Source of the DNA: Phoronis australis
Taxonomy: Eukaryota > Animalia > Phoronida
Reading direction: 5' to 3'
Assembly: GCA_002633005.1 (NCBI GenBank)
Contig: NMRA01000468.1
Span: 288,917 to 348,383, forward strand
Length of the DNA stretch: 59,467 nucleotides
Of the stretch, positions 1-53,362 are shown piece by piece; position 1 is the first letter of the stretch; each line of letters begins with the position of its first letter. A program made the translations under genes and the position numbers. The notes below the pieces were generated by a model. That model saw nothing but the letters and a program-made list of their open reading frames with translations. It did no database searches and was not told where the DNA came from.

Positions 1-210
1 CCCCCCCCCCCCCCCCCCGAACCAGCACATATGTGTCTCCATTGCAATAAACCTAATTTGGTAGAAATAATTACATGTGCAGTATTTTCTAACAAAGCTT
101 AACACTCACAGTTCACTCACTCAGTTAACTGGGGCATGTCCTTAATGCCTGGCTTGGTCTAGCAAGGTCAGAGACTGTAAACGGATTTTCATGGCATGCT
201 TGTGAGTACC

Positions 211-6750: not shown

Positions 6751-6831
6751 ATGGACTTCGGGACGTCCAGATCCGACTACTGTTATTTTACCTTAATATG
6801 CGTTTGTCTCTGCCATTTTGGGCTTGGAGGG
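6751..6831 (+). CDS. Possible signal-peptide exon of the Ig-domain gene (MDFGTSRSDYCYFTLICVCLCHFGLGG)
   Basis: ATG, then a hydrophobic stretch, then a gtaact donor. It ends in phase 0 while the next exon needs phase 1, so an intervening micro-exon would be required. Confidence 0.3.
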
Positions 6832-6914
6832 GTAACTAGTTGACATAGTGTCTTAGAATTTTACGGATAGTTGTAAATCATCAGTATTGTTCACACACCA
6901 ATAGGTCACATTAC

Positions 6915-6995
6915 GGCGTTTTCCTGTTGATCCCAACTTGTTCGATTCTATTGCCCAACAATAAGTTGGGAGGGAGGATGACCCCTGTAGCCAAT
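6915..6995 (+). repeat. Dispersed repeat, second copy at ~15208-15292
   Basis: Both copies share gttgatcccaacttgttcgattctat(t/a)gcccaaca...gatgacccctgt. Confidence 0.75.
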
Positions 6996-7923
6996 ATCTT
7001 ACACAAGTCTGATTAATTAGGGCCAGGGCTCTTTTATTTTTGATAATTGCTGTAATCTCCAATAAGATCGTATCTAGCCTGACTGGGCTGTGCTGTTAAA
7101 AATTGAAGTTAAGTTATGGTATATTTGAACATAAACCAATAGCATTTCTGAATTCCTCGTCAAATGCTGATCATGTTTAGTTTAATGGAAACCTGGCTGA
7201 TGACTCTTTGGATAGATATGACTTATGGTAAAGTGTTAGCAAAATAGAACACGGTATGGTGGAACAATGAAATTTTATGTTATTGAAACTGAACAAGAAT
7301 AAATAAAGACAATTTTCCTTATTGTTTGAAAAAACATTATATAGCATGGGTGACATCAACAAGCACACCATGAAATTTTGTGTTTTGGCAGTACACAGTG
7401 GGCATTAGAAGTATAAATAATGTCAATTATGGCCATTATTTTTGTTCAAATTTGAGGAAACTTTACAGTATCTAGCTGCCACGCTTCCTAGTTGAAGTTT
7501 TTCGTGTGTTTGTGTTGGCCTCAAAATACTAAGCTCGATGAAGGTTCTTAAAATTTGGCAGACGGTGAAATTTTGTCCAAGAGGACGCAGGACTTTCTCA
7601 CCCAAAAAATCCCCCCTCGGAAGATACAGGCATCTTTCCCCTCAGGCAAACGAGGCCCTGTAAAACGGCTTCTTCATTTGTCAAATCCCTCAGAAGTCAT
7701 CATTAATACTGAACGTCTGTTTAGGTTAGCATGACTTGAAGTGATTATTAGATGGATCTGATGCATTGCCCCATTACTATTCGTGATGGACGAGGACCTG
7801 ATCTTCCCTCGATCTCAGATTAATCAAGAAATTACGGATAATTTTTCTTTCAGTTAGATCAATTTTGAAATGAAGTGTAGTGAAGTTATGAAAGTTTCTG
7901 ACATGACCCTGTCCTTCTTTCAG

Positions 7924-8004
7924 GAGAATTAATCTTCAGCTCTCCGCCAATATTGAAAATTATTTCTGGCGACAACGTCACCATTGATTGCAGATATGAA
8001 GGAA
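7924..8004 (+). CDS. Lachesin/IgLON-like Ig protein, exon encoding the N-half of Ig1 (ELIFSSPPILKIISGDNVTIDCRYEG)
   Basis: tttcag acceptor, gtaagt donor, phase 1-1. Ig B-strand motif GDNVTIDC. Confidence 0.85.
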
Positions 8005-10158
8005 GTAAGTAATTCTTTCTATGTGTGAACATGCTGTTCAATATGTGGTACGGGGGCAAGAAATCCTAAAAACCTGTGACATTTCTCAGTTATTGGAGTC
8101 ATTTTAAGGCAACTATAATTTTTAGACTATTCCCGTACTACCGCATTGCCATCCATGATTCTGCGGTATTTGAGGGGGCAATTGCCTCTCAATTGTTCGC
8201 TGCTGCCAGGCTAATTGCCAATTTACACCAAAACTTGGCTGTCCTGGATTACTCATGCAGTGACACTGAAATCTCCCTGTATTTATCCACATTATGCTGC
8301 AAGCACTCGTGAATTGCATCATTGGAGTTCCACTTGTTATTTGTATTCTTTACAAGTTATTTGCTGCTGTGTGTTGCTCTATTTAACTTCCTGATGCCAC
8401 AAAGTATTCCTTGGCTGCTGACTCCAATGAGAGAAAGTGGAATAAACTTGACAAATATCCCTGTATTTGTGATGTTAAGTTCTTTGCTTTGACTCGAGAT
8501 CAATTGAAGACAAGAAAATGGGAGCAACTGGCAAGTTCATTGTGTTGAGGTTGTCGTGGATACCCTTGCTACCAGGGATATTTTTTTTAAATATCTTATA
8601 AGGCTCTGCTTGTCAGCCCTAGAAACCTTATATTTTTCAAAATCCTTGATGATTCCTGACTGAGGTCTTGATTTTTGACGACTGGGATTTTGGTCTAAAT
8701 AAGCCTAAGGCTTAATTTGCTAATTTTTCCATACACCTGATTGAACATAAAAGAATATCGAGATAGAATTTTCGATCTTCAATCTGTCATGCTATATAGA
8801 AAATTGCATTTTCAAAAAATTGCATAACTATAAACAGGAAGACATTTTCACGTGCACTGTAGATTTCTGTGATCACCAAAGATTTGAAAAATATATGGTT
8901 TCACGCGATTGACAAGTTATTGGAATATTTATTAAAGATATTTAACGAAGTTTGACGCTTGGAAGGCAAGATGTGCATTTACCTTGATTTTGTTACAAAC
9001 TGAATCCCCCTTCTTGAAGGGAGTCCTTTTCAATTCCAATACTTTTAAGCGGTTGTAACTGGGAATATTTCCATGGTCATGTTGCACCTCGGCAGTTTCC
9101 ATCATGGTGATGGTATCTTGTTTAATGGAAATGTCCTTTAGTGGAAATGTTTATGGCAAAGTTTGTACTATGTGTAAATGTCATAAGTTGATATTTTTTA
9201 AAGTTTTCATTATTTTTAACTAAATAATTGGCCTTTGAAAAATGGGAAAACGCCACTTTTTGCAATTGTCTTTGTGCGAAATAAGTGGAGACTTTTACTG
9301 TATTGTTACCAGCACTACAATTGAGATCAAGCTCACTCTTGGAACCTAGAGTCTGGTCACATGTGATTTATCTCATATTCATTGAATCTGAGTCGAGTGC
9401 AATACGGCCATGTAATATTGTTTTACGTATTCACCTCCCGCACTACTTCAACAGTGACCGTTGACATGGAAAGTTTAAAAGATAGGTCAATGTCGACTCA
9501 ACGTTGTTAGCCATTTCAATGATCAAACTTTCCGAAAATAGTTTAAAGTAATTCAATTGCAGTAGTGTAAATAACATTCGCCATGCTGCAACTCAATAGC
9601 AAATGTTATTTAACTATTGTCAGCAAATGTTAAAGTTCAATGCTCAATTACCGTTGTTTTCATCTTTGCTATCTCTTTTCAATTAAGAAATCATTACATT
9701 TAAAACCTTTTCTTTTATTAGAAAAAACTTGTAACCCAACACGCAAGTATTATTACATGTAAGATGTGATCCGCCATGTGAACAGTCTGGGTGACTGCCA
9801 AAAAATGAAAGAAACTTGGGACTTTGAAGCATATTGGATAAATACAAAACGTACCTCGATTAGCGTAGATGGAGTAATATCCCACTCGACATTATTCTGC
9901 GAATTGACCTCGACCTTCGGTCTCGTAGGATATTACTTCATGAACGCCACTCTCGGTACGTTTTGTATCATGTCTCGGGTTGTTGTGACTTTCCACAGTT
10001 ATTCAAAACTTTGTCTGATGGCGACTCTGGTATAAACTTTGAACATGGAAAACCATTTTATTTGCGGCTGTATATGTAGCATGAAAAAATGATGAAACGA
10101 AAATTAACTCGTAGGCCAATGTGAATAGTTTTGGCCTTGACCTTTCTACAATTTCCAG

Positions 10159-10407
10159 GTGACCCCTTTATTGTCTGGAAGTTCACACCTAAAAATCAGG
10201 ATCATAGTCAAGCCCTCACACGCGGAAGTAGGATTCTGGACTCAGTGGAAACAACGTTGATGGGCCAAGCTCGGGTGGATGGGGACTTAGAGTACACATC
10301 TAACCTTACGCTCATCAATGTGAACTGGCAGATTCATGATGGCGTCTACGAATGCTCAAACTTGGACGGTAGAAGTGCTGCTCATGCCACTGAAGTGCAA
10401 GTGAAAG
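10159..10407 (+). CDS. Lachesin/IgLON-like Ig protein, exon encoding the C-half of Ig1
   Basis: ttccag acceptor, gtgaga donor, phase 1-1. Ig motifs IVWK, SNLTLINV and DGVYEC. Confidence 0.9.
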
Positions 10408-12641: not shown

Positions 12642-12760
12642 TTCCTCCGTATGATCTCGAGGTTGTTCCAACTCAAGTCAGACTAGAGCCAGGGGACAGA
12701 CTAGAGCTGAACTGTTCTGTGTTGGGTCGGCCTACACCCACAATCACGTGGACTCGTGAG
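12642..12760 (+). CDS. Lachesin/IgLON-like Ig protein, exon encoding the N-half of Ig2 (VPPYDLEV...LELNCSVLGRPTPTITWTRE)
   Basis: ttttag acceptor, gtaatc donor, phase 1-0. I-set motif LNCSVLGRPTPTITW. Confidence 0.9.
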
Positions 12761-13675: not shown

Positions 13676-13826
13676 GATGCTGCTTTACCGAGTGGTGAAG
13701 GGTCCATCGCAAACCCAGTTTTTTCTGTTGATAAAGTGACCAAACGCGATGGTGGAATCTATGCATGTCGTGCTTTCAACGGCTATGGGGACACCGTTGG
13801 TGCAAAGGTTAAAGTTGAGGTGTCAT
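13676..13826 (+). CDS. Lachesin/IgLON-like Ig protein, exon encoding the C-half of Ig2 (DAALPSG...DGGIYACRAFNGYG...VKVEVS)
   Basis: ttttag acceptor, gtgagt donor, phase 0-1. DGGIYACRAFNG motif. This frame is not in the ORF track. Confidence 0.9.
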
Positions 13827-14050: not shown

Positions 14051-14210
14051 TTCCACCAGAGGTTTTTGCTCCTGAGACTTTGTTGTTCTCTGGACCGAAG
14101 AAAAGAGACGTGAACATGGTATGTGTGTTTGACGCCTACCCACGCGTGGACTTGCAATGGTTTGCTGATGGTGTTGATGTTTCCACACTGAGTCACATGT
14201 CTACAAAGAG
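14051..14210 (+). CDS. Lachesin/IgLON-like Ig protein, exon encoding the N-half of Ig3 (FPPEVFAP...MVCVFDAYPRVDLQWFADG); no downstream exon found
   Basis: ttctag acceptor, gtattg donor, phase 1-2. FPPEV and CxxxAYP...W are typical of lachesin-like Ig3. Confidence 0.85.
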
Positions 14211-16501: not shown

Positions 16502-16600
16502 AGAAAGGGAACACCTTTGCACTACGCAGCCTGGGGAGGAAACCTAGAGATTGTCAAGCTACTTTTAGAAAAAGGAGCTTCAAAAAGTGCACGAGACCAG
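16502..16600 (+). CDS. ANK-ZU5-protease gene: ankyrin-repeat exon (RKGTPLHYAAWGGNLEIVKLLLEKGASKSARDQ)
   Basis: ttgcag acceptor, gtattt donor, 99 nt = one 33-aa repeat, phase 0-0. Near-consensus TPLHxAA..G..EIVKLLL.KGA. This frame is not in the ORF track. Confidence 0.92.
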
Positions 16601-17671: not shown

Positions 17672-17770
17672 TACCATAGGTTTCCCCTACACTACGCTGC
17701 GTTGGGAGGTAGTGGCGATGTCTTTGCCTGGTTAAAAGACCAATCACCAGAAACAAATAAAAAAGACCTG
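17672..17770 (+). CDS. ANK-ZU5-protease gene: ankyrin-repeat exon (YHRFPLHYAALGGSGDVFAWLKDQSPETNKKDL)
   Basis: ttgtag acceptor, gtaagt donor, 99 nt, phase 0-0. PLHYAA..G and N.KD motifs. Confidence 0.88.
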
Positions 17771-21020: not shown

Positions 21021-21095
21021 GTGGGTAATCTTCCAATCAATATCTACGAATCACAAAGCAGTACGGTTGATTTTGTAACAATTCACATGCTTCAG
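21021..21095 (+). CDS. ANK-ZU5-protease gene: exon (VGNLPINIYESQSSTVDFVTIHMLQ), capping ankyrin repeat
   Basis: tttcag acceptor, gtgggt donor, phase 0-0. KDL|VGNLPI continues the ankyrin D..G.xP pattern. Confidence 0.8.
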
Positions 21096-22898: not shown

Positions 22899-23145
22899 GT
22901 ACGATTCCACTCTTGAACAATATTTAGTTGAAATGGGAGACCGCAAGGAAATCATTTAGAATACATCAATCTGTTTCATGAAAAATTATTAAAGGCATCA
23001 CAAATTTGGTTTTCACTCCATGCAACCATTATCTGAAAAATATTTATCACAGTTCATTTCAATGCCGTAGGCAATTACAAAAGTTGAACTGTCCGGAAAT
23101 GGACAAAATAACTTTATTTCACTGGAAAAAAGTACAGCTTCTGAG

Positions 23146-23491
23146 AATATAAGCATACCTGCCAGTTACTAAGCCAACATAAGCATATCTGCCAGTTACT
23201 AAGCCAATATAAGCATACCTGCCAGTTACTAAGCCAATATAAGCATACCTGCCAGTTACTAAGCCAATATAAGCATACCTGCCAGTTACTAAGCCAATAT
23301 AAGCATACCTGCCAGTTACTAAGCCAATANNNNNNNNNNNNNNNAATATAAACATACCTGCCAGTTACTAAGCCAACATACGCATACCTGACAGTTACTA
23401 AGCCATTATAAGCATACCTGCCACTTACTAAGTCAGTTTAAGCATAAATGCCAGTTACTAAGCCAATATAAGTATACCTTCCAGTTACTAG
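23146..23491. repeat. 30-bp minisatellite AATATAAGCATACCTGCCAGTTACTAAGCC, about 11 copies, spanning an N gap
   Basis: Direct tandem copies with no spacers, degenerating toward the 3' end. Confidence 0.95.
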
Positions 23492-24049
23492 ACCACTTTT
23501 CTAAAAGTTACACCACCTTTATGAAATGCAGATTATCTTTAAACCTAGTCTAAGTCCAGTATAAGCCAGGTTGAACTTTAATCCACCTTTATGAAATCGG
23601 CTGATGATGTTTAGCTAAACTTTTATACAGCAATGCTGATATGGGAGAGCAATACCAAACTTTTCGCTAAAGTTTTGCTTAGCCTTCATGAAATGGACAT
23701 CTGGTCTAAATACTGGAAAGGCAACTGTCTCTAAAGTGGGAAAGACATTCAGAAAAAATTGGCTCACAGGTGAAATTTTCTTCAATAACTGTGCATCCAT
23801 AACAGTTCATGCCTCCTGTCTTAGAATTGCTTCCTGCAGGGAAACCATATGCCATGTTCAAGCTGCAAAATATCCACGTTTTAAAATTCATGGGATGTGA
23901 TGCGTTTTTTTTCTCCGCATAGTATTGACTGGCTTACAAATGTCGGCCTGTTCAAGGCTCGTTACACATGTAGTTGTCTTTTATCTTAAACTGTAACAGT
24001 CTGCAAAATGAATACGTTTCGTTTGTAATCATTACACTTTCCCTTTAAG

Positions 24050-24807
24050 CGATTGAAAGTGAAGGCGTGTCATACGAAGTGATAGAGGTTGACAATCCCT
24101 TGATGATGAAACTTGCCAAGAACGAACTTGATACAGGTTCGTTGTACTTGCTGGCGAAAACGATTTGTGTGGTCGTTTTTGAACCCGCGAAATTCGAACC
24201 GCCCGTGAGAGTTAAAGTAAACGTGAACAGCATTTTGCGACAGATGGGAGTAACAAGTTGTGACGAAGCCGGCTTTTTCATTTTACGCAAAACAAACGGA
24301 AAAGTGGATAACGTCACCAATGAAAGTCATCCTCGGCTGGAGGGCAAAGAGCTTATTTTCTCTTGTCATCATTTTTCTGATTTTTTTATCGGGTTTAGCA
24401 AAGTGAAGAGATATATCGAGAAAATACGCACGCTATGGACGGGGACATTCGCGGCGTACCTGTGTCCTTCGGTGACCAAAAATGGAAAATGTTTGGATCT
24501 AGCCCTAGTGTGTCACACTCCATATGGCGAAAGCGTAGCTCATCCAGGTCATAGGAAAAATTTAATAGAAATTCACCGTGATTGGAAAATCCGAATTAAT
24601 TTCTATTGGTTCACAACGGGAGGTAAGAAAGAACAAGAACTGTTCCATAAAAAGGCTGTTGACATGGAGATGTGGGGGACAGTCGGCGAACGTATTGCAA
24701 GAAAAGCTTGTCCAACGTCTGTAGAGGGTTCTTCAGTCACTGTTGAGGTGTCGTCAGTGCAAGGAAATGAGGAAGATCACATATGTATTTTATGTGACAA
24801 CGTCAAG
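24050..24807 (+). CDS. ANK-ZU5-protease gene: large exon with ZU5-like domain (PAKFEPPVRV...HHFSDF) and a UPA-like beta region
   Basis: Longest ORF in the window. An in-frame stop at 24046-24048 forces the aag acceptor (phase 1). Ends AAG|GCAAGT (GC donor, phase 0). The F..PV.V and HFS motifs are characteristic of ZU5; the UPA call rests on position only. Confidence 0.8.
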
Positions 24808-24822
24808 GCAAGTAGATTCTGA

Positions 24823-24856
<34 letters not shown>

Positions 24857-24862
24857 GTAATA
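24823..24862. repeat. (AAT)n microsatellite
   Basis: Direct reading. Confidence 0.95.
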
Positions 24863-25369
24863 AAAAAATAAACTATATTTAAAGAGGGTGTCCATCAAAA
24901 TGTTATAGTGAGGTACTCCGTAATTTTTCCTAAAGCTGCTGTCTAAAAATCAAAATGCACATGTTTGTGTGCGTGTGCGTGCTTATGCGCGCGTGTGTGT
25001 GTATGCTGTACCCTCGGTATTAGACTTCAGTCTGATATATGACCACCCACAACGTTTTTCTCATAACATGTAGTAGCCCACCTGAATGGGTACATGTCCT
25101 TTATTTTTGGTCGACGTGAACTCATTTCTGGCGCGCCCTTGTTTCTGTTCTAGTCTATGAATTTTAGCAAAAAGTTGTCTTAAAGCCTACCTTCAAAGAA
25201 ATGCTGTTATTTTAAATCAATTGTGCCACATACTGCTTATTTAGCCTTAGCAAGAGAAGAAAACACGAGTTTAATCACTCAAATGTAAGTCTGTCAAATG
25301 ATTGGTGAAGTTGCCTTTTCGTGCCATATTACGTCACCGCGAAATCCCAGCACAAACAACAAAAGGCAA

Positions 25370-26667
25370 ACTAGAAAGATTATTGTTACGGTGTGACAAT
25401 AATGGACTCTTCGCTTGTGTATTACACGATTTTTTATGGGAAGTTACTGACAGCAACCCGTTAACCAATTTGAAATGGAATTCTTTAAAATTGTAGGAAA
25501 AATAACATGTTAATATTATGATGACATTTCCACTATTTGACCCCTTTTTGTGCATTATGAGCCCGGATGAGGGGAAAATTGTAAACTCGATTAAAAGTGT
25601 GGTTAATGCTAAGAATGACAGATGTTTTACTTTAAGCACATCACAATACAAGATGAATGAATTGGTCAAACTTCCAGATGAAAAATGCACCTAATGACCC
25701 ATGGGTGCACCAAATGACCTAAAAAGTTAGAATTCAAACTCAATCGCCCTTTGTAAACAGATATTTAATTTGAAGTCTCTAGCTCAAAATTTTAGTTTGC
25801 ACTCAGTGACCTTTGACCAATTTTTCTGATTGGTTAGGCCTATTGCAAAGTAAAGTAGGGTATTCAATTTGCATGTTGACTTACACCAGTGTGCTAAAAT
25901 TGAAAAGTATTCCTTGAAAAAGGTAAGAGATATAACATTTTGAACGTTACATGACCTTTGCACTAATTGACCCTATCCGGTGCATTTTAAGCGTCTTTAG
26001 GAGAATTATTGCAAAGCCCATGAAAAATGTGTTGAATGCAGAGAATCACAGTTGTCTATCGGTTGACACATCAAAATACTTGGTGAATGAAAAGGTCAAA
26101 TTTTCAGGAGAAAAATGCAGATAATGACCCGATGTTTGCACTAAATGACCTGAAACTTTGGATTCCGAATTGAATTACCTGTGCCAATCAGACCTGTGAA
26201 TTTGTAGTGTCTAGCTCAAAATTTTAGTTTGCACCTAATGACCTTTGACCTATTTAACCCGATTGGATGACCCGATTAATTAGAAATTGTAATTTTTTTA
26301 AATTGCCCTCTTAACTTATACGTGTGCACCGAATTTCAAAAAGATTTTTAACTGAAGAAGAAGTAGCATTTTGAAAATTATATGACCTTTGCATCAAACG
26401 ACCTCTTCCGGCGCCATATGGAACATGATCATATAACGAATCAAAATTGCTGTACTGTCAAAAATAATATGCTGAATTTAAAGAACACACCTGCACCCAT
26501 TTTGGAGTTATTAAGCCTCGAATTTGGTCGGAAGAGGAATAAGAATAAAATTGAAGAAAACCCTGGAACAACAGTACTTTGCGCTTGCACACGAAGAGTA
26601 ATAAGAATGAAATTGAAGATAACCCAGGAACAACTTACAGTTCTCTGCGCTTACACGCGCAGAGTAA
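25370..26667 (-). mobile_element. Helentron/DINE-1-like non-autonomous element, inverted relative to the copies at 29065-35924
   Basis: Reverse complement of the 30564-31859 unit: subTIR head TTACTCTGCGCGTG with hairpin, internal diverged repeats, 3' palindrome and CTAG end. Confidence 0.8.
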
Positions 26668-26995
26668 AAATAGTTGTATTGAATAGAGGTCTGAATAGAA
26701 CATTCATCACTTGAAGGTATTGTAGTGAAGCGACTTCTATTGCGTTATGACGTATTGATTAACCTACTTAATTGATCTGTTTTTGGATGCAGTGGAAAAT
26801 TCTCCACGATAAAACTAGTTGTATTAATGCTTGAATAGTTTTCGTTACTACGGCTTACTTGATGGTGTCAGGATTCACTGAACCTTCTACGAACAATCAA
26901 ATTTTGCATATACTATCACAGGTGTTTGCCCTCCAACACCATAAACTCTGTCCCAAAATTCATCCCATGCCTGTACCAAATGGTAAAAATCGCTC

Positions 26996-27012
26996 AATAT
27001 ATATATATATAC

Positions 27013-27070
<58 letters not shown>
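26996..27070. repeat. (AT)n-(TG)n compound microsatellite
   Basis: Direct reading. Confidence 0.95.
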
Positions 27071-27072
<2 letters not shown>

Positions 27073-27229
27073 CTTGTTCTTGGCCTTAGACAGTTTGTTC
27101 AACAGTCTTTCGTATTTTCTACATAAATGTCTTTCTTCAGATGGCAGTTGAAATAGTAGATCACCGAGTGTGAGTGGCATCACAAACACAAACGTATGAG
27201 TAAATATAAAATAAGAAGTTGGAATACTT

Positions 27230-28830
27230 AGGTCAGTTCATAGGCAGCCAAGGTCTCTGGACAGACCCCAAAAAGTATCTGCCATACTAGATGCATAGAA
27301 ACAACCAAACATCCATGAGCTACGCCGTTTCCTTTGAATGTTTAATCAACAGGTGAAATTCTGCCCCAACCTAACAGACTTAACAGAGCCAATTCGTGGT
27401 TTGCTGAAATCCAAATCGGCTTGGTTGTGGAACAAGTGTCATACTGATGCATTCTTGAAACTCAGTGAAGAGCTGGCTTCAAACCTTATTCTATGTTTAT
27501 ATGGTACCGACCGGAAAACCGTTGTTTCAGCAGATGCAACTAGCTATGGCTAGGAGTCGGTCTTATGCAACGACAACCTAAAGGTGACCTGCAACCAGTT
27601 GCCTTTGGGAACCGATCCACGACAGAGACCGTAAGACTGTATGCCCAAGTAGAAATGGATGTATTATCAAGGATATTGGCCATAGAGCATTGGTCAGATG
27701 AGCTCATTGACTTGGACTTCCAAGTACAAACTGACCACAAACCTTCGTACATGTACATTCGGTATCAACGAGGACAATCGACGACTATCTTGTGAGAATA
27801 CAACGGTTCCGTATGCGTTTGATGAGGTACACATTTACTGCTTCACATGTTGTTTGAGAGCTGCTATGTGCAGCTGATGCGTTGTCCAGAAAACATTTCG
27901 CTTCTGATATTCCAAACTCACCAGCGAAGGACGAGTCAGAGCTCGGTAAAGAAAGAGAATGCTATGTACCTAGCGTAGTGCTCTGTGCACCTCAATCAGA
28001 TCACCGTCTCGACGAGATTAGTATGGTGGCCAGGGTTGTCATCAGACATTGAACAAATGGCTGCTACCAGTAATATTTGTCAGAGAATTCATCGTCGACA
28101 AATAGAGCCTATAAGATGAACATAATTTGAAGATCGACCGTGCTGACGCGATGGCGCAGATTTCTTTCTGTACAAACAAAAATCTACCTTCTCGCGGTAC
28201 ACTAATACTCCAGAGACATTGGGGTTGTCCTTGTGATGCGCAATATGAATACTTCAGAGACAATTATGAACCTGAAAAAAGTCTTCAGTCGTCATGACAT
28301 CCCTGACATACTCTTTTCTGACAAGGGCTTTCAATTTGCGTCCTCAGAGCTTAACAACTGTCAGTTCATGGGGTTTCGAACATGTCATTTCGTCGCTAAG
28401 ATACTCACAATCCAATTGGAAGGCAGAGCGTGCAGTTCAAACCAGCAATGATATGTCGCAAAAAACAATGGTGAATATCACGCTCTAGTGACATAGAGAA
28501 ATACCCCGCTCCATAATGGATTTTGGCTAAGCCAACTGAGTATGGAAGAAGATTGAGAACCATAGTTGCATGTCATCCCGATCTTCTACAACCATGCATT
28601 CCGGATACCGACTCTGTCTGTCGGGAGACGAAAGACTAAATACCTACGCGAGATGGCGAATGACTACAACCCTAGGCACAAGGTTATTGAACCAGAGGAT
28701 ATAGATGTAGGATCTCGCGTACATATTCCTGATTTGTCAGATGATGGTCAAGTTGTTGGAACTCATGAGCCTAGTTCTTTGCTTGTGGACACATATAATT
28801 GTACTATTCATCGAAACACCTTGTGTTAAG
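27230..28830 (+). pseudogene. Gypsy pol remnant (RT connection/RNase H and integrase)
   Basis: LTEPIRGLLK, VSADATSYG, QPVAFGNRS..ET..YAQVE, QTDHKP, FSRHDIPDILFSDKGFQFAS, YSQSNWKAERAVQT. Many frameshifts and stops. Confidence 0.92.
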
Positions 28831-29064
28831 AAGTTACCACCAGAGATGCCACCGACCATAGTGTAGCTAATTACTGCTAAGTCGCCAACCTGTGAGGAAC
28901 CTCCTTCAGTCAAAAGTTTTGATAGTTCCAGTGATAGTACGCCGATACTTAGGAGAAGTACTCGACAGAAGCGTAAGAACCGGAGATACAACGGGAAGTG
29001 TTGGAAGACCCTAGTTATAGTGTTTATAAGACTTCGCATAGTATCTATACGAACTCTAGTCTAG

Positions 29065-32000
29065 TTACTCTGCGCGTGTAAACGCAGAGTACTGTTGTTC
29101 CTGGGTTTTCTTCAATTTTATTACTCTGCCCGTGCAAGCGCAGAGTTTTACTGTTCTACGTATTTTATCTTCTTATTCTTATTATTCTTATTCTTCTTCT
29201 TCTTTGCTTTTCATATTGTTATTACTCTTACATTCAATCATTTAGAACAATAATATTTATTGTTATTGATAAGAGAGTTAAGGGATTTATATTGATAATA
29301 TTTTTTCGACCCTAAATGCACTAGGATGACCTGAAACGGTTCAGTTAGTGCATTTTTCAAAATGCTTTTTCTTCTACAGTTTTTTAGATAGACTCTTCGA
29401 ATTTTGTTAACAAGTAGGGACTAAAGAAATGCATGAGAAATTTACACGGATTTTTGAGCTAGACCTTTCTTAATAATGCGTATGATTACCATTCTTAAAG
29501 GAAGTTCAGTCACAAACTTTGGGGTCACTAGGTGCAAATTTGGGGTCATTAAGTGCATTTTTCTGTTAAATTTAAGACTTTTTCAATCAGCTTGTACTTA
29601 ATTTATGCATTAGTGAGAGCGTTCAAATTCATGGTTGTTCAACCGATCAAATTCTATTGATCCCATGGATTTGACTCAAAATGCACCGCATTGCCCCAAA
29701 AAGGGTCAAGGAGTGCATTCCGTCGAATTGCTTCTCCTTTTTCAGGTTTTTAGATAGACTCTTCGCATTTTGATAGCAAAAAGGCACTAGAGATCCGCAT
29801 AATAAAATTTACTTGGAATTCCCATCGGATGAAACGAACCGAGTTTCCGGGTCAAAGGTCATTAAGTGCAAACGTGATTTTTGAGCTTCAGTTTTCATAA
29901 TCATGCATATCATTACCATTCTAAAAGGAAGTTTAGTCACAAACTTTGAGGTCACTAAGTGCAGTTTTGTGTAAAATTTAAGACTTTTTAATCAGCTTGT
30001 ACTTAATTGATGCAAGAGAGTTCAAATTCATGGTGGTTCAACCAATTGCCGATCAAATTCTATTGATAATACGTGTAATGACCCAAAACGCACTATAGGA
30101 CCGCAAGAGGGTCGACCAGTATAATTCTTTGAAGTACTTCTCCTTCTGCGATTTTTGAGATTGCCTGTTAAATTTCGTGAACAGCTTGACGCCATATAAG
30201 AGCACCTACATCTTACATGGAATTTCGATCTGAACAACGGAAACGAATTTCTGGGAGAAAGGTCAGTAAGTGCAAAAGAGACTTTTGAGCTAGACTTTAC
30301 ATAACCATGTATATCATTTTCATTTGCAAAGGAAATCCATTCACAAATTTTAGGGTTATTAGGTGCAACTCTGGGGTCATTAAGTGTCGTTTTCTCTTGA
30401 TATTCTAACTTTTCACTCTTGCCAGGGACATCTCTCTCTTTCACACAAAAGATGCAACTTCTGCGCAATGTAATGCGCCTGTACTCCATTCTGCATGTGC
30501 GTACACCACGCGCAGAGTTGTAAGTGCGCATACGCAATTGCGTTCTAGTTCTTCTTATTCTTATTACTCTGCGCGTGTAAGCGCAGAGTACTGTTGTTCC
30601 TGGGTTTTCTTCAATTTTATTCTTATTCTTATTCTTATTACTCTGCGCGTGCAAGCGCAGAGTACTGTTGTTACTGGGTTTTCTTCAATTTTATTCTTAT
30701 TCTTCTTCCGACCAACTTTGACACTTAATAACTCCAAATTGCGTGCAGGTACGTTCTTCAAATTCAGCATATGATTTTTGACAATAACTAAATTTTGATT
30801 CATCATGTAATCATATTCCATAACGCACCGGAAGAGGTCATTTGGTGCAAAGGTCATGTAACTTTCAAAATTTTACTTCTTCATTTTTAAAGCAATTCTT
30901 TTCAATTCCGTGCACAGGTATAAGTCAATAACGCAATTTAAAGAAATAATTTTCTAAGTAATCGGGTCATCCAACCAGGTGAAATAGGTCAAAGTTATTT
31001 AGGTGCAAACTAAAAGTTTGAGCTAGACACTTCAAATTGACAGGTCTGATTGGCATAGGTAATTCAATTTGGAATCTAAAGTTTCTGGCCATTTAGTGCA
31101 AACATAGGGTCATTAGGTGCATTCTTCTTCTGAAATTTTGACCTTTTCAATCAGCAAGTATTCTGATGTGTCAACCGTTAGACAACTGTGATTCTCAGCA
31201 TTAAACAAACTTTTTATGGGCTTTGCAATAATTCTCCTAAAGACGCTTATAATGCACCGGATAGGGTCAATTAGTGCAAAGGTCATGTAACGTTCAAAAT
31301 GTTATCTCTTACGTTTTTCAAGGAATTCTTTTCAATTTCAGCACACTGGTGTAAGTCAACATACCAATTGAATACCCTACTTTACTTCTGAATAGGCCTA
31401 ACCAATCCTAAAAATAGGTCAAAGGTCATTGAGTGCAAACTAAAATTTTTAGATAGAGACTTCAAAATTACATATCTGTTTACTAAGAGCGATTGAGTAT
31501 CAATTCTAAATTTTCAGGTCATTTGGTGCACCCAGGGGGTGCACTTTTCTTCTGAAAGTTTGACCAACTCATTCATCTTGTATTCTGAAGTGCTTAAAGT
31601 AAAACATCTGTGATTTTTAGTATTAACCACACTTTTAATCGAGTTAGCAATTACTCCCTCATCGGGGCTCATAATGCACCGGAAGAGGTCAATTAGTGGA
31701 AGGGTCATCAAAAAAATTAATATGCAATTTCTCCTACAATTTAAAAGAATCCCTTTTCATATTGGTAAATGGGTTGCTGTCAGTAACTTCCCATAATAAT
31801 TCCTGTAATACGCACTCGCAGAGTCCGTTATTGTCACACCGTGACAATAATCTTTCTAGTTCTTCTTATTCTTCTTATTCCTCTTACGACCAACTTTGAG
31901 GCTTAATAACTCCAAATTGGGTGCAGGTAGTCTTTAAATTTAGCACATAAGTTTTGACAGTACATGAATTTTGATTCGTTATATAATCATATTCTATGAT

Positions 32001-35000
32001 GCACCGGAAGAGGACATTTCGTGCAAAGGTCATGTAATTTTCAAAATGCTACTCCTCTTTTAACTTAAAAGCTTTTCTTTTCAAATTCGGTACACAGGTA
32101 CAAGTCGATAAGGCAATCTAAAAAAATACTTTTCTAACTAATTGGGGCATCCAATCAGATTAAACAGGTCGAAGGTCATTAGGTGCAAACTAAAATTTTG
32201 AGCTAGACACTTCAAATTCACATGTCTGATTGGAACAGTTAATTCAATTTGGAATCGAAAGTTTCAGGTCATTTAGTGGAAGCATGGGGTCATTAGGTGC
32301 ATTTTTCTTCTGAAAATTTGACCTTTACATTCTCCAAGTATACTGATGTTTCAACCGTTAGACAACTGTGATTCTCAGTTTTAAACACATTTTTCACGGG
32401 CTTTGCAATAATTCTGTTAAAGACGCTTATAATGTACCGGATAGGGTCAATTAGTGCAAAGGTCATCTAACGTTCAAAATGATATATCTCTTACGTTTTT
32501 CAAAGAATTCTTTTCAATTTCAGCACACTAGTGTAAGTCAACATGCCAATTAAACAACCTACTTAACTACGCAATAGGCGTAACCAATCAGAAAAAATAG
32601 GTCAAAGGTCATTGAGTTCAAAATTAAAATTTTGAGCTAGAGACTTCAAAATTACATATCTGTCTACTAAATGTGATTGAGTATGAATTCTATATTTTTG
32701 GGTCACTTGGTGCACCCATGGGGTCATTAGGTGCATTTTTCTTCTGAAAGTTTGACCAATTCATTCATGTTGTATTCTTCAAGGAGAATGCCTCCCGATT
32801 TAATTAGTCTTTTTTACCATCTTAATTGGTCCATATCCACATCGCCTCGCATACGGTCGACCTTACCTTGCCGAGAGGTGTTGCGTTAACCTTTGAGGAA
32901 GTTGAAAAACGACGCTAGCGACGTCAGTGGTTCATATGCAGAGTGAATGCTGCTATGTTGCGGTGCATCGTTCCCGCTTGTCCGAACTAAGCAGGTGCGA
33001 GGAAAGCGGGCATATCGTTTTTTACTTCCTCGAGAGTCCGAAATGCTTAGGAAGTGGCTCATGGTAGTGAAGAATGAAATGTACGCTGTAAATATCAAGT
33101 ATGAGGCCGTGAAACATCTCCGTGTCTGTGGCCTGCAGACGTCGACAGTGCCTGACGAATGCCGGATTACCAAATAACTCCATACGTTCCGTTGTCTGAG
33201 CTTGTTCACGGCGCCTCTCTAGTATTTCTTCATCACTGGATTCCTGTTCGAATTGATAGCCTGTAAAACTTAACGATCCACCTGCGAAGTCGGGACTGAT
33301 GAGCTCTAGCTCGTCCTAAGGGATTGCGAGTTGCCATTTTGGCGTTTTACTGAGCGTTCTGTTTCAAAATGAGTTATTCTCATCCTAACCAAAACTTATA
33401 TAAAACTGAAACAAAGTCTGTCTCATTAAATGCAATTTGTAATGCCTTTGGAGTGTTCGTGAGTGCTAATGAATTGAGAAGACAGCAATGAATCAATCAC
33501 TGCGTTACCGGCTTCAGATGCAATAATACTAACTGACGGGACACCGAGGCCGTGTGAGCTCATGCTAATTTAGTGTTTGCTGGCAGAAACTGTTTTGAAA
33601 CAACTCGATTTCCATCCCAAGACCAGGTGTTAGAGGAATTAATCTTTATTTACATTTACAATACTCAAATAATGATTGTCAATGTACAACTTCTGCCCTG
33701 ACGTCCTGCTGTCGGTGAAAGCGGAACCTGAATTCGCGGGCCCCGACGAGTGAATAGATTTGCAGTTTCGTGGCTAACTCACCAACATAATCACGCACAC
33801 ATTACTTTGGCTCACTAGTATAGCATTTTCTTGACTGGAAGTTTAGTTTCCACTGAGCTTTGGCTGGTTTATGTTCGTGAAGTGTGATCAGTTTCCGAGC
33901 CACTGGCCGGGATATCGAGTCACTCCGGCCGGCTGTGACGGGCCTGATCGGGCTACGAGCCACTGTCCTGGATAACAAGCGTTTTATGTTTAGAACTCAA
34001 AAAATCATAAGTCTAAACAACACAGATCTAGGTTCTCCTGTCTGTATCTCACGGAAAATACTTCGAAATTATCTGAAAACACACCCCATACTCCTGCTAC
34101 GGACCTTATTGGCCTCCAAACTTTGTAGGCTACGGTGTGTCCAAATACCAATTTACTCCGTAAGAGCAAAATAAAAAACACGTTTTTATAAGAACTCGGT
34201 GTATTTTTATGGGTTTTACATCGAAGTTTTATGATTTATTGGCGTTAAACGATGACTTCAAGCAATAAGCTGACATCAGTAACCCGTGTTGTGAAATGCT
34301 GAACAGACTGCGTTTGAAACCGATGACGTCATTGGATAATTTCAACACCTCCGTCTGCCGTCAGGTGTCAGGTAACGCAACCGTACGTGTCGTTATGAAG
34401 TAGAACTACTCGATCTAGATTGATACAAATTAGGTTGTTTTTTTGGGTGGCATGCTTCTTTAAGTGCTTAAAGTAAAACATCTGTGATTCTTAGCATTAA
34501 CCACACTTTAAATTGGCTTTACAATTATTCCCTCATCGGGGTTCATAATGCACCGGAAGAGGGCAGTTAGTGGAAAGGTCATCAAAATATTAACATATAA
34601 TTACTCCTACAATTTTAAAGAATTCCTTTTCATATTGGTAAATGGGTTGCTGTCCGTAACTTTCCATAACATTTACCTTAATACGCACGCGCAGAGTCCA
34701 TTATTGTCACGCCGTGACAATAATCTTTCTAGTTCTTATTCTTATTCTTCTTATTCTTCTTCCGACCAACTTTGAGGCTTAATAACTCCAAATTGGGTGC
34801 AGGTACGGTGTTTAAATTCAGCATATGACTTTTGATACTATATAAATTTTGATTGGTTATATAATCATATTACATATTGCACCGGAAGAGGTCGTTTGGT
34901 GCAAAAGTCATATTATTTTCAAAATGCTACTCCTTCAGTTTTAAAGCTATCTTTTTCAAATTTTGTGCACAGGTATAAGTTAATATGACAATTTAAAAAA

Positions 35001-35924
35001 ATGCTTTTCTAAGTAATCGGGTCATCCAATCAGGTGAAATAGGTCAAAGGTCATAAGATGCAAACTAATATTTTGAGCTAGACACTTCAAATTGACAGGT
35101 CTGGTTGCCACATGTAAATCAATTCGGAATCTAAAGTTTCAGGTCATTTAGTGCAAACATGTGGTCATTAGGTGCATTTTTATTTTGAAAATTTGACCTT
35201 TTCAATCAGCAAGTATTCTGATGTGTCAACCGTTAGACAATTGTGATTCTCAGCATTAAACACATTTTTCATGGGCTTTTTCAATAATTCTCCTAAATAC
35301 GCTTATAATGCATCGGATTGGATTAATTAGTGCAAAGGTCATGTAACGTTCAAATTGTTATATCTTTTACGTTTTTCAAGGAATTCTATTCAATTTCAGC
35401 ACACTGGTGTAAGTCAACATGCCAATTGAATACCTTACTTTTCTTCGCAATAGGCCTAACCAATCAGAAAAAATAGGACAAAGGTCATTGAATGCAAACT
35501 AAAATTTTGAGCTAGAGACTTCAAAATTACTTATCTGTTTACTAATTGCGATTGAGTTTGAATTCTAAATTTTCAGGGCATTTAGTGCACCCATGTGGTC
35601 ATTAGGTGCATTTTTCTTCTGAAAGTTCGACCAATTCATTCATCTTGTATTCTGAAGTGCTTAAAGTAAAACATTTGTGATTTTAATATTAACCACACTT
35701 TTAATCTACTTAATAATTATTCCGTCATCGGGGCTCATAATGCACCGGAACAGGTCAATTAATGGAAAGGTCATCAAAATATTAATATGTAATTTCTCCT
35801 ACAATTTTAAAGAATTCCTTTTCATAGTGGTAAATGGGTTGCTGTCAGTAACTTGCCATAATAATTCCAGTAATACGCACGCGCAGAGTCCATTATTGCC
35901 ACGCTGTGACAATAATATTTCTTG
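29065..35924 (+). mobile_element. Cluster of four Helentron/DINE-like non-autonomous elements nested in one another
   Basis: Heads TTACTCTGC(G/C)CGTG.AA.CGCAGAG at 29065, 29121, 30564 and 30638. Tails (subTIR CAC(G/T)CGCAGAGT, palindrome, CTAG/CTTG) end at 30548, 31859, 34732 and 35924. (TTCTTA)n microsatellite at the junctions. Three ~1.2-kb bodies are closely similar. Confidence 0.8.
32782..34459 (+). mobile_element. Kolobok-type DNA transposon (internally deleted) inserted in a Helentron-like unit
   Basis: Imperfect TIRs AGGAGAATGCCTCCC / GGGTGGCATGCTTCT with flanks TTCA and TTAA. Sister units show the empty site tattctgaagtgctt. THAP remnant (LRKWL...LRVCGL) on +, KolX-like remnant (GYQFEQ) on -. 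Confidence 0.85.
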
Positions 35925-36479
35925 TTGATACTTGCTAGATCTGCTTAAATTTAGTGTTTAGGCAGAAGTCTTGATGTATGGGGGAGATGTAGTGAAGCGT
36001 CATCTATTGCGTTATGAGGTATTGATTAAGCTATCCGATGGAAGATTCTCCACGATTAAAGTAATTGTGTTTTAACAATTAAAATGTTTGAATAGTTTTC
36101 GTTACTACCGCTTACTACATGTGTTACTTGCAGCTGTTTGAATGAAACGGTGATTCTCTTGGTGGCATTTACAGGTGTTACCGTTCAAGATAGTCTTTCA
36201 TGCGGTTTTCGAGTGCATTATATGTATCATATTGTCTTAAAATTAAATGATGGTCGATCAGTTTTTGAAATGCAATGATCCGAAGTAGCGAGATTTTGTC
36301 CTCGGGATATTCAATATTTGAAATACTTTAACATTATCTTTTTCTTAAATTAGTAAGCGCGCTACCTACTCTTGACCAATAAACTGTTGAATCAGCAACA
36401 AATTTGTCTCCAGAATCACACTCTGTTTTCTATTCTGGTGCTTTATTCCTGTCATTGAATCATCCCTGTTGTTTTTCAG

Positions 36480-36650
36480 ATTCTTGATGTGACATCTTCG
36501 AATTTGGATGAACAGTGTGTGGATGCTTGTGCGTATACCATTAGTTTTGAGTTTTCATAAACCATTATTGTGAACTTTAATACGTTTATAAAAATGCCTC
36601 TCAGTGCCTTGCAATGAGCAATGAAAATCTGGATAATTTTATTCAACTTG
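36480..36650 (+). other. Candidate alternative/cassette exon of the ANK-ZU5-protease gene
   Basis: Strong acceptor (gtttttcag) and gtaagt donor at 36651. The phase-0 reading ILDVTSS...EFS stops at 36558-36560. ATG at 36614 (MSNENLDNFIQL) is in phase with exon 39867. Confidence 0.45.
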
Positions 36651-37593
36651 GTAAGTGAAAACACTTAACATATTTCATAACTTCAGTGTCCGGGCTCTAT
36701 TCTGTCGAAATAGACCTAGAAATTATTGTTGACTTTCCGTTCTACATCAGAGGAGCTCAGGTTCAATGTTTGGTATTCTATGCTTGGGCGTGTTGTGGGT
36801 TTTGCATTCTTGTGTCTAATCCAAACTTCTACCTTGTACGAGCTACAGACGCGAAAGATGGGTTATTTCAAGTCAAAACCTAGGATTTCGAGTTTAGACG
36901 CGAACATTTAGTTTTAATGCATATGCTATCAACTGCATAATATTGTAGTATTACTCAGTCATCTACATAAACTATAATGTACTTGACTCAAGTACAGAAT
37001 AACCGACATTTTTATTGAGTTCGTAAACTATAATTTTGAGTTTGATAGCGAGTTTTCATATTAGGCCTGGGGCCCAGGAGCTCATACCTTAAAGGTATAC
37101 TTAACCCTTTTTCGGTAATTTCAACCAATCCTCTTTATGACACCTGCCCATGCATCACTGACATCGGCCTTCCAAATTAAAGGCAGGAATCAACGAAAGA
37201 CTTATATTCCCTATGCCACAGATTGGACATTATGGTCATTGGTAGGTGGTCTTCTCGCACAGTTGCCATGTAATTCGTCTAAAAGCATAAGTTATACTTC
37301 ACAATTTAGCAGACGTTGAAAGGAGTTTTAAAATTTTCCTCCAAACTGTTGTGGGTTGTCGAGGTTGCACAGCGTTATTGTAATTCAGAGAACTGGACGT
37401 GAAAGTCGATTTTGGTGTCTTTTAATAAGCCAAAACTGGGTTCAGTATCCTTTTAAGTTAAGACGTACCGTTAGTTATCTTGTTGTTGAATTGCAATTTG
37501 TTTCACTCCCAGGTATTCAAAAACTTGCGTTATCCAAATGTCGTTGAAATTTTTCCTAATGAAATGGTAAATCATTCGGCGATGAATTATTTG

Positions 37594-39605
37594 TACGGTG
37601 GTAGAGATATCATCGCTATTTTAAATAAATGAATGTTTACATTTACCTTGTTCTCCTAGGGGTAAAAAAATCATATCTAAGTGAGAAAGAATCCGCCAGG
37701 ATGGAAACTTGATTCCTGTCTGGTGTAAATAAATTAAACTCGGTTGGAAATAATTTCAACCCTAGTGTGAAAAAGTGTCTCCAAAATGGGAAGAGTTTAC
37801 ACCTAGGTGAGAATGAATTGACCGGAAATATTTTCTATGCTGGTGTAAATAATTTCGAACAAGGTGGAAAAGATTCCATAAGGTGATATGTATTTCCACC
37901 CAGGCGCATGTTGTTTCAACATACATGTAGTCGTAAATAGTCAACACAAGGGGGGAAATCATTTGCACTCTGGTGACAACATATTCCACCTAGTATGTGG
38001 ATGTATTTTCCACCCTGGTGAAATTGTTTCAACCCAGGTGCAAACCTGTTCTCACCATACACGTACTTCATAAGGTTGGAAAACATGACGCACGAACTCT
38101 TAGATATGAATCGACCTTATCCAATAAGAAAGCATAGGTACTGTCAGTCTCGTCCATACAGTTGGGCGTTGGTCGAATCCCTTCCCCCATTAGAAGTTGG
38201 GATAATTTCTCTTAATCAGGGCTGCTAAAGCACACTGGTTGACTGTCAGTAGGTTAGAAATGGCTTCTAGTTCAGCGTTGTTGGTTTCATTCTTTCAGTA
38301 CACTCCCGCAGTACTTTACGGTAAAAATTTGAAACACCGAGTCTTCCAGACGGACAAAAATAGAATCTTGACGATCGAATATGTTGCATGTTCCAGAACA
38401 CACTTATTTCGTCTAATTCAGTTTTCAGCATGTGTATATCGAAAACTACAGCAGTCTTTATGTAAGGTATTTGATGGGCAATTACTACATCAATTCCCAG
38501 TTTCTTGAAATGATAAATCCATGTTGTACAGCGCTTTCTCCAACAAAATTTCTCTGGTTGGTTTTGGAGCGTCCATATAAAAGCACGATGTCTGAATTGT
38601 AGCGCGTGCGTCATTGTTCACATTGCGTAAAGACTGCATTTGCGCAGTGCTTGTTTTTTCAGATCAACAATTTGCTCTCACCACATTCGAAAAGCCACCA
38701 ATTGAATTTGAAAAATATTAGCAAACTACTGATGGGCCGTTGCTTGTTAAGGCTACCTCTAATAATAAAATACTGCGTGAAAAGCTGACAATTCCAACGC
38801 AATTATACAAATCAAACTTCTTCAGTTCATCCCATCGGCTGACATGCCAGAGTTCATTTGGACCTCTGGTACAATATTGCCTTCTTTGGAGACGTCTTTG
38901 TCTTCCTAGTTCGACACCTCCTGCGTGTAGGCGCTTTACACCACTCACGCAATTTCGCAATCACCGATGACTTAGTGCACCTTCTGAAAGATTGGCGTTT
39001 GCAGCTACCAAGTAATGACCATTTCAGAAGATTCTTTGAGTTAGTCGCTGAGTACCTCCACCCTCGGCCAAGTCTCTCTAAAACAAATTTCAACTGAACA
39101 CGATTAATATTTTAATCGTGACAAACACACATTAATTCAATTGTTTCCCTGTACTTGAACCCCAGATGAAAGTAATACATAACCAAATTGTCTCTGTTTA
39201 AATCTCCAAAAAGTAGAGAAGGCGCCTACCCTGTAATTTAATCGCAGATGTGTTGAAAGAAATGACTGCCACAATTGACCTTCTCCTCAAAACAATTAGT
39301 CCAAGCACAACAAATACGAAAATAGGTGCCCAGATAAATTAGATATCGGCCCAGGCTGCAATTTTTAGCCGGTATGAGTAATTTACACATAGGTTAAAAT
39401 AGTTTCTACCCGGGTGCAAACTATTTTCATTTTGGTCAAAATAATTTCCAACCGGGTGGATATTACTTTTCGATAAAACTTTTAAAAACTGACGATGAAA
39501 ATATTTCCACCCAGTTGAATTCATTTTCACATAGGCGTAAATTGTGAAACAAAAAAAAAACAAAAGTTTATCTATAATGGCTGTGATAATATTTCGGCCA
39601 CCGTG
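37594..39605 (-). mobile_element. IS3EU-like DDE DNA transposon, degenerate
   Basis: Minus-strand remnants GVELGRQRRLQRRQY...GPNELWH...FSRSIL, VVRAN...YGRSKTNQR and ELDE...WN..HIRSS...CPSGR match the eukaryotic IS3-like integrase-core pattern. Imperfect TIRs TACGGTGG.../...CCACCGTG and many subterminal cacc(c/t)agg repeats. Confidence 0.7.
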
Positions 39606-39693
39606 TTATCATGAAGTTTCAATTTATTGTAGAATTGCTTTGTCTTTAAAATAATAACATCTTCTTGCACTCCCACGGTTTGTTTGCCAATAG

Positions 39694-39784
39694 GACATCA
39701 ACATTTTGGGCAAAATTTACTTGACACCTCCAAAAATTAACGGTTACACCCCTGGTGGCGGTGGTGATGGTAGCAGTTTTATTG
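39694..39784 (+). CDS. ANK-ZU5-protease gene: Gly-rich linker exon (DINILGKIYLTPPKINGYTPGGGGDGSSFI)
   Basis: caatag acceptor, gtaaaa donor. Phase 0-1 joins the ZU5 exon to the protease exon in frame. An 82-nt intron follows. Confidence 0.6.
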
Positions 39785-39866
39785 GTAAAAATATTACAGC
39801 CAGTGTTGATAGTAGTTATACGATAAAAATGGGTAGTCAGTCTGAAATGAGCACTTATATTTGTAG

Positions 39867-40070
39867 GGGCACCCCTACAGTTGATGTTGGCTCGTGACAC
39901 GTGCAGGGATGACATTTCCAAACACTTCTTGGACAAATTGACTAGTGCATTCTCATCTGTAGCAAGGATAACGTGGTCTAATGATTTGTGTGGCACAGGG
40001 TTCCGCGTTGGAACACGCTACCTTATGACTAATTACCACGTGGTTAAGGAGGTGACTGCTGATGTTCCAG
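39867..40070 (+). CDS. FAM111-like trypsin-like serine protease exon with catalytic His (CGTGFRVGTRYLMTNYHVV)
   Basis: ttgtag acceptor, gtaaat donor, phase 1-1. GTGF...TNxHV is the trypsin-like peptidase motif. Confidence 0.92.
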
Positions 40071-42984: not shown

Positions 42985-43035
42985 ACATTTTCACGACGTT
43001 TCGGTTGGTCCATTCTCCAGCCATCGTCAGGTGTT
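42985..43035 (-). ncRNA. Hammerhead-ribozyme-like motif (Penelope terminal-repeat type)
   Basis: Minus strand reads CCTGACGA-tggctgg-agaatgga-ccaacc-GAAAC-gtcg, followed by an A-rich tract. Stems I and III were not verified. Confidence 0.5.
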
Positions 43036-46375: not shown

Positions 46376-46689
46376 GTCAAGTTCGACAGCAAAAACGATC
46401 CTGCATGTTCAACTACAACAGAACACCCCGTGACGGTGATGCTAGAAACTTCCAGCAACTTTCATTTGCACCTCACCCCATTGTCGTGTATGACGAGGAA
46501 CTGGATTATGCAATTCTGGAATTAATAGACGACCCAAATAACCCACTGCCAAAGCCATTGGAAAAGTTTAAAAGGCTCAGAGATGCAAACAAGACAATAA
46601 GTTTTGCTGGCCATCCCAAAGGCGAAGCCATGAACGTGCAACTGCAATGTTCAGTGGTTCGCACGTCCGGTCAAGATTTAATGAAATTG
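46376..46689 (+). CDS. FAM111-like serine protease exon with catalytic Asp (DEELDYAILEL...FAGHPKG)
   Basis: ctttag acceptor, gtgagt donor, phase 1-0. F.Y, LDYAILEL and GHP motifs. Confidence 0.92.
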
Positions 46690-53029: not shown

Positions 53030-53362
53030 TACAATGAGGCTGTTAACTGGTCAATGGCTACCTTTCATCTTAACGCGTACCAACAGCTCCTCGACCGAGA
53101 CCGTGTTCTTTACCACACAAGCGAAAAGTTCACCAAAGGCAGCTCCGGCTCTCCTGGACTGATCAGTGACGTCAGAGACAATGCGTGCGTAGCTGCTGTA
53201 CATGTGTGTCAGTTTCCGGGGGTTCCTTCTGAGTTGATGACCCATGTTCCAGATAAGTACACTGTAGAACAAGGTATTCGGATTGAGGCCATCTACAAAC
53301 ATTTGTTTGAGACGAATGAGGTTTTATGCTCAGAAATATTTCCTGAAGGTGAACCTGCGTAG
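53030..53362 (+). CDS. FAM111-like serine protease terminal exon with catalytic Ser (VLYHTSEKFTKGSSGSPGL...AAVH...VEQGIRIEAI)
   Basis: ttttag acceptor, phase 0, TAG stop. GSSGSP nucleophile motif; the C-terminal EQG..I..I is typical of FAM111-like proteases. Confidence 0.93.
   Translation, partial: YNEAVNWSMATFHLNAYQQLLDRDRVLYHTSEKFTKGSSGSPGLISDVRDNACVAAVHVCQFPGVPSELMTHVPDKYTVEQGIRIEAIYKHLFETNEVLCSEIFPEGEPA

Follow-up and report, generated by a model that had tools for sequence, protein, structure and literature searches.

Does a His-Phe-Ser (HFS) motif encoded in the genome of the phoronid Phoronis australis mark a site of protein self-cleavage and, if it does, what would the cleavage prepare for release? 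We addressed this question in a window of 59,467 nucleotides, the whole stretch of DNA that was analyzed, which is overall intron-rich animal DNA with transposon remnants. Positions are numbered from the first nucleotide of the window.

The HFS motif and its reading frame

The motif is encoded as originally quoted: the peptide LIFSCHHFSDFFIG, translated directly from the exon sequence, occupies 24352-24393 (+) within a 257-codon open frame (24049-24819), a length of which about 0.002 instances would be expected by chance per window. The surrounding exon (24050-24807, 758 nt), which begins at a phase 1 acceptor at 24050, is part of a spliced animal gene. Its features, and those at its 3' end, are:

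24050..24400 (+), incomplete ZU5-like beta-sandwich, with at least the first strand missing (AF2 model, Foldseek, ESM Atlas; Pfam blank)
24370..24378 (+), His-Phe-Ser, read from the sequence (His 24370, Phe 24373, Ser 24376)
24373..24378 (+), predicted cleavage site, Phe (24373-24375) to Ser (24376-24378), in the loop that joins predicted strands 101-108 and 112-117
24401..24807 (+), putative UPA-like region, coding to its end (first ESM Atlas cluster carries the name UPA domain-containing; codon bias)
24805..24813 (+), candidate GC splice donor AAG/GCAAGT, phase 0, four codons before an in-frame stop
24820..24872 (+), alternative gene end: in-frame stop (24820-24822), then two AATAAA (24859, 24867) where an AAT microsatellite ends

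A bare HFS is a weak signal: it turns up in 2.75% of 20,000 shuffled versions of the exon, and HF followed by S, C or T occurs dozens of times across the six frames. The motif in its context (strand-HFS-x-aromatic, a pattern written after the site was seen) is matched by 0.1% of the shuffles and, within the window, by the HFS site and two places on the minus strand. Immediately before Phe-Ser lies Cys-x-His, with the Cys at 24364, and the full Cys-x-His-Phe-Ser is kept in the exon; Cys-x-His is a motif of the ZU5 superfamily that the exon matches (PMC3482391). The case for the site is made by its position in the fold and not by the motif alone.

Evidence for a ZU5-like fold

In an AlphaFold2 single-sequence model, the first 127 residues of the exon form a beta-sandwich (mean pLDDT 57.8, core 58-72), in which F109-S110 lies on a loop between strands 101-108 and 112-117, with a local pLDDT of 66-69. 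Both low-confidence single-sequence models agree on this placement, and in the predicted sandwich the loop directly precedes the last strand. In Foldseek, ankyrin ZU5 domains take the first three ranks (best 3ud2_B, E 0.011, probability 0.99, TMq 0.46); none of the matches to the 127-residue model reaches E 0.001. With VIA-align, ankyrin ZU5 domains align at Z 5.0-5.7 and rmsd 4.1-5.0 over 100-111 residues, longer than the other top-ranked alignments, with unrelated sandwiches tying in Z. The top ESM Atlas clusters are ZU5/UPA (scores 0.93 and 0.92), with PF00791 in 47% and 39% of their members; the 0.93 cluster shares 157 features with the query at a recognition value of 1955, below the guide value of 2300. 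Searches of the exon against Pfam and NCBIfam profiles returned no match, and a PDB sequence search returned chance matches only. The 253-residue model (pLDDT 41.6) has no clear fold match. Among the structural matches listed for the two models there is no chain of NLRP1, CARD8, UNC5B or Nup98, although such chains may occur beyond the listed matches.

The placement of the motif at the end of a ZU5-like domain, as originally proposed, thus stands as to the loop before the last strand, the leading Foldseek matches and the ESM Atlas clusters, and lacks a significant fold or profile match; the evidence is weak but concordant. We consider it likely, though not proven, that the domain is a ZU5 domain, as the models suggest. 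Its missing first strand must come from an upstream exon. Homologs of the exon were found neither among 1.84 billion representatives at E 0.001 nor among 806 longer candidates or 91 metagenome stretches.

Since HFS sits at the canonical self-cleavage position of the modeled ZU5-like fold, cleavage is likely and is predicted here; if the domain is ZU5, self-cleavage between F and S is, by analogy, a good bet. The exon could instead encode a non-cleaving scaffold of the ankyrin or UNC5B kind, with HFS a relic or lacking the strain that cleavage needs, a reading that we regard as improbable. Consistent with it are the structural matches to ankyrin ZU5 domains, which to our knowledge do not self-cleave, and the strong divergence of the sequence, for which the searches gave no relative. 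In addition, Asn occupies the position 27 residues before Ser, where NLRP1 and CARD8 need a His (PMC3210808; PMC8081665), the position being set here by residue count. On the other side, UNC5B carries Leu in place of the Phe (PMC3210808), whereas the full Cys-x-His-Phe-Ser is kept here, and enzymes of the HFS type carry their His within the motif (PMC3210808; bioRxiv 10.64898/2026.05.12.724683).

The UPA-like region and the 3' end of the exon

Codon-position bias at 24622-24807 exceeds that of all 300 stop-free controls, and at 24421-24621 it is no better than the controls. Pfam is blank over the UPA part of the model, residues 128-253, where pLDDT is below 50. The strand order of the exon presumably fits ZU5 followed by UPA, as compared with ankyrin, UNC5 and PIDD1 sequences, and comparison with UNC5 suggests that the UPA may be complete within the exon. 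On that comparison, the idea that its last strand comes from a downstream exon (39694-39784) was dropped.

Where the UPA-like region ends, the sequence AG/GCRAGT occurs for the only time on the + strand of the window (cut at 24808), with one further occurrence on the - strand. Scored as GT, this donor reaches 9.8, within the 5.7-10.9 of 11 reference donors; the splice-site matrix was trained on our own candidate sites and its scores serve as a guide only. A GT donor of equal score, in phase 1, lies inside the UPA-like region at 24623; its use would halve the UPA, a point against the fusion with the protease described below. Its junction to the exon at 39867 also gives an open frame, a possible shorter isoform. 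As the main donor it was judged less likely, because 24622-24807 stays open and looks coding.

A trypsin-fold protease downstream

Four exons downstream on the same strand bear on what may follow the UPA-like region:

39694..39784 (+), Gly-rich linker exon before the protease, phase 0, without ATG (frame)
39867..40070 (+), protease exon 1, catalytic His 40037, in-frame ATG 39884 (Pfam Trypsin_2, E 0.005)
46376..46689 (+), protease exon 2, catalytic Asp 46504 (only PDB matches FAM111A 8s9l and 8s9k, E 0.05)
53030..53362 (+), protease exon 3, catalytic Ser 53144 (GSSGSP), stop, followed by AATAAA at 53503 and 53527 (sequence)

The PDB matches of protease exon 1 are trypsin-like proteases (best E 0.005), and protease exon 3 has no database match of its own. 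On the inferred exon chain the His-Asp-Ser triad is intact, spaced 54 and 100 residues, as compared with 54 and 102 for H385, D439 and S541 of FAM111A (PMC10920703). Judged by sequence, the downstream exons encode a protease of the trypsin fold whose triad is spaced much as in FAM111A. With single exons as queries, the sequence match to the FAM111 family is weak (E 0.05, one exon) and does not recur in other searches, and homolog searches with single protease exons were blank. The domain scan of 40000-53100 covered 11 of the 80 + strand segments listed, and that of 1-10200 a minority of its 57 segments.

One gene or two

Joined in order, exons 24050-24807, 39694-39784, 39867-40070, 46376-46689 and 53030-53362 read through as a single open frame of 565 codons, and their phases agree at all four junctions. 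That the ZU5-UPA exon is spliced in frame through the GC donor to the protease exons seems to us slightly better than an even bet. Taken whole, the reading of a likely ZU5-UPA with a predicted self-cut at F/S, which splicing at the GC donor likely links to a trypsin-fold protease resembling FAM111, falls somewhat short of even.

The alternative is two genes, one of ankyrin, ZU5 and UPA ending at the stop at 24820, the other a separate FAM111-like protease 15 kb downstream; we consider this a serious but distinctly less probable arrangement, in which the ZU5-UPA protein may still self-cleave, yielding a UPA piece of 148 residues (17 kDa) without an effector. It would account for the stop and AATAAA signals after exon 24050-24807 and for the in-frame ATG 39884 in protease exon 1, which offers the protease a possible start of its own. 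Against it, the GC donor is perfect, in phase and at the domain end, and is the only such site on the + strand; exon 39694-39784 is open and in frame and, having no ATG, needs a phase 0 partner; and in known cases ZU5-UPA is followed by an effector domain (PMC3210808).

RNA bears on the choice in both directions. Three raw-read runs from the same species (X1-X3, of which about 18-19% was read) and one contig run were mapped on 23900-43800. Most mapped reads derive from repeats, which fill the tables of joints and loose ends. No joint between ZU5-UPA, ankyrin and protease exons is among those listed, with 67 joints and 748 loose ends remaining outside the listing. In X3 the two parts of the ZU5-UPA exon have implied depths of 0.4 and 0, vs 5.5-5.8 for the next two exons, values that assume all reads in the bins to lie on exons and that reflect a handful of reads, where the filter may cause dips. 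The linker exon has an implied depth of about 5.5 in X3 and 0 in X1 and X2; the latter two runs cover only the bin with exon 39867, so that protease exon 1 has RNA in X1-X3. The much higher depth on the protease exons favors two genes and speaks, weakly, against the fusion as the main transcript; it is the chief result against the fusion. The X3 reads on the ZU5 exon and on the protease exons nevertheless share one orientation, which argues against two genes. A few X3 reads at 38508-39171 could represent another, alternative 5' exon, which would again suit two genes, or transposon reads from other copies.

A third possibility, which we hold to be quite improbable, is that the locus is decaying or misassembled and that the order Ig, ankyrin, ZU5-UPA, protease does not correspond to a real protein. 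No start exon was found for the ankyrin part, the Ig gene upstream stops partway through a domain, N bases occur at 15296 and 23330-23344, and almost no RNA maps to the ZU5 exon. On the other hand, none of the core exons has a stop or a frameshift, the triad is intact, the splice phases agree and the protease exons are transcribed.

The 15 kb between the ZU5 exon and the protease consist to 55% of internal repeats and contain other small phase 0 exon candidates, which count against the fusion. In 77 of the 79 + strand segments of this gap there is no other cellular domain, and neither a death domain nor a CARD, the matches being transposon pieces and one weak DUF match; this speaks for the fusion. 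A C-terminal death domain is likewise absent from the candidate gene itself, where the ZU5-UPA exon ends in a stop or joins the protease exons.

Upstream exons

Whether the ZU5-UPA exon is preceded by an ankyrin part depends on the following exons:

16502..16600 (+), ankyrin-repeat exon, 99 nt, phase 0-0 (Pfam Ank, E 1.9e-9)
17672..17770 (+), second ankyrin-like exon, 99 nt, 36% identical to the first (Pfam Ank_3, E 0.05)
21021..21095 (+), possible but doubtful linker exon, 75 nt (strong splice sites, both in the matrix training set)
23673..23769 (+), possible but doubtful phase 0-to-1 exon giving the ZU5 start (one of four candidates; frame kept)

If both doubtful exons are used, a chain of nine exons and 689 codons stays open. 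Exon 21021-21095 has no codon bias and no Pfam match, exon 23673-23769 no codon bias, and a splice-site search upstream found no start exon for the ankyrin/ZU5 gene; the link from ankyrin to ZU5 is unproven and depends on the doubtful exons. The original assignment of an ankyrin part and a UPA-protease part to one protein is borne out as to order and strand, with ankyrin exons upstream and protease exons downstream, and lacks a listed RNA joint. Neither LRR nor two tandem ZU5 domains were detected by Pfam in 95 of the 96 upstream segments, the remaining one being the ankyrin exon.

A tandem repeat of about 30 nt at 23145-23490, 560 nt upstream of the ZU5 exon, includes a 15-N gap in which a short exon could be hidden. 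Farther upstream, exons of an Ig-domain gene lie at about 7924-8004, 10149-10407, 12642-12760, 13676-13826 and 14051-14210 (+), and its third Ig stops after the first half. An UNC5-like receptor, with the Ig exons joined to ZU5, was considered and rejected, since neither a transmembrane exon nor a continuation of the third Ig was found.

A proposed mechanism

In the known self-cleaving domains of this type, the bond before the Ser is attacked by the Ser itself in an N-to-O shift, with strain coming from a buried Phe (PMC3210808; bioRxiv 10.64898/2026.05.12.724683). Autoproteolysis of PIDD1 is constitutive and insufficient for activation (PMC7883297). NLRP1 holds its two halves together after the cut, since the first strand beyond it pairs with ZU5; release follows only on degradation of the N-terminal half, whereupon self-association of UPA drives signaling (PMC8081665; PMC11760013). 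FAM111A requires dimerization, and its N-terminal region may inhibit it (PMC10920703).

On these precedents, the fused protein would work in four steps. The first consists of what is seen in the sequence, namely the motif, the open frame, the in-phase splice sites and the intact His-Asp-Ser triad. Next, as in PIDD1, Nup98 and CARD8, a constitutive N-to-O acyl shift and hydrolysis would cut the chain at F/S. As in NLRP1, the strand after Ser would then complete the ZU5 sheet and the halves would stay bound, with a UPA-protease piece of 457 residues (51 kDa) held in check. Finally, and speculatively, the ankyrin-ZU5 half could be lost, for instance if a pathogen insult leads to its degradation, freeing the UPA-protease piece, and UPA-driven self-association might activate a dimerization-dependent protease.

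The cut was first proposed as a possible switch that would separate the two parts. Given that PIDD1 cleavage is constitutive and that the strand after the cut in NLRP1 stays in the ZU5 sheet, it would be a priming step rather than a switch, leaving the halves together. A two-cut scheme like that of PIDD-C and PIDD-CC does not apply either, since only one ZU5/HFS site is seen. More tentatively still, and with rather low probability, the whole could constitute a single-chain protease inflammasome, with ankyrin repeats as the sensor, ZU5-UPA as a self-cleaving fuse and a protease of the FAM111 type, in which N-terminal degradation, as in NLRP1/CARD8, would directly unleash an oligomerization-activated serine protease without CARD, adaptor or caspase.

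Relation to known systems

The layout, with one ZU5, then UPA and then an inferred C-terminal effector, resembles the FIIND (ZU5-UPA-CARD) of CARD8 and NLRP1 more closely than PIDD-CC. Those proteins are cut at F/S before the last strand, with the halves bound until N-terminal degradation, as is predicted by analogy here; they differ in having SFS in place of HFS, no CARD, NACHT or LRR is seen here, and the likely effector is an enzyme. The motif, in contrast, is PIDD1-like: PIDD1 (LRR-ZU5-ZU5-UPA-death domain), UNC5CL and Nup98 share HF/S at the end of a ZU5-type fold (PMC3210808; PMC7883297). Unlike in PIDD1, one ZU5 is seen here, with ankyrin exons rather than LRR found upstream, and neither a death domain nor a series of two cuts. 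Having neither CARD nor death domain, it is a member of neither group. Ankyrins (ANK repeats-ZU5-ZU5-UPA-death domain) also place ankyrin repeats before ZU5-UPA and provide the best structural matches, whereas here two repeats were found, with one ZU5, an HFS and no death domain. The protease domain of FAM111A (PDB 8S9K, 8S9L) has the same trypsin fold and a triad spaced 54/102, as against 54/100 here, but its match is weak (E 0.05) and protease exon 1 matches other trypsin-like enzymes; we know of no ZU5-UPA or ankyrin part in FAM111A.

Self-cleavage has been proposed as a means of deploying variable effectors, including peptidases, for the ZU5 autopeptidases of bacterial polymorphic toxins and for TRADD-N/FIIND fusions of marine animals; these are predicted in other architectures, and the excerpts of the two papers describe no ankyrin-ZU5-UPA-trypsin chain (PMC3482391, PMC8195603). 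Such a protein was found nowhere in the literature searched, subscription papers being outside its scope; the excerpts of PMC11566483 mention FAM111 and ZU5 in unrelated places, with no such fusion. ZU5 self-cleavage ahead of variable effectors is thus already in print, and the likely protease fusion would be the new part.

An HFS in a ZU5 domain is ordinary by itself, and if the splice is not real, the locus adds one more divergent ZU5-UPA gene. If it is real, a module whose known role is the release of death-fold adaptors would be coupled directly to an enzyme, one that resembles the antiviral, dimerization-dependent protease FAM111A. NLRP1-type release logic would then be widened to a new output in invertebrate immunity, in a small, one-gene test system.

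Transposon remnants around the candidate exons

A decayed LTR-retrotransposon with RNase H and integrase zinc-finger pieces lies at 27338-28500 (+), among blocks of a diverged repeat family (25369-36116) that are duplicated in the window and for which RNA reads from other copies are abundant. A broken integrase-core element (rva_4, E 0.005) occupies 38270-39111 (-), just upstream of exon 39694-39784. Within the protease introns lie a reverse-transcriptase remnant at 44374-45733 (+) and a THAP-domain remnant at 48482-48922 (+).
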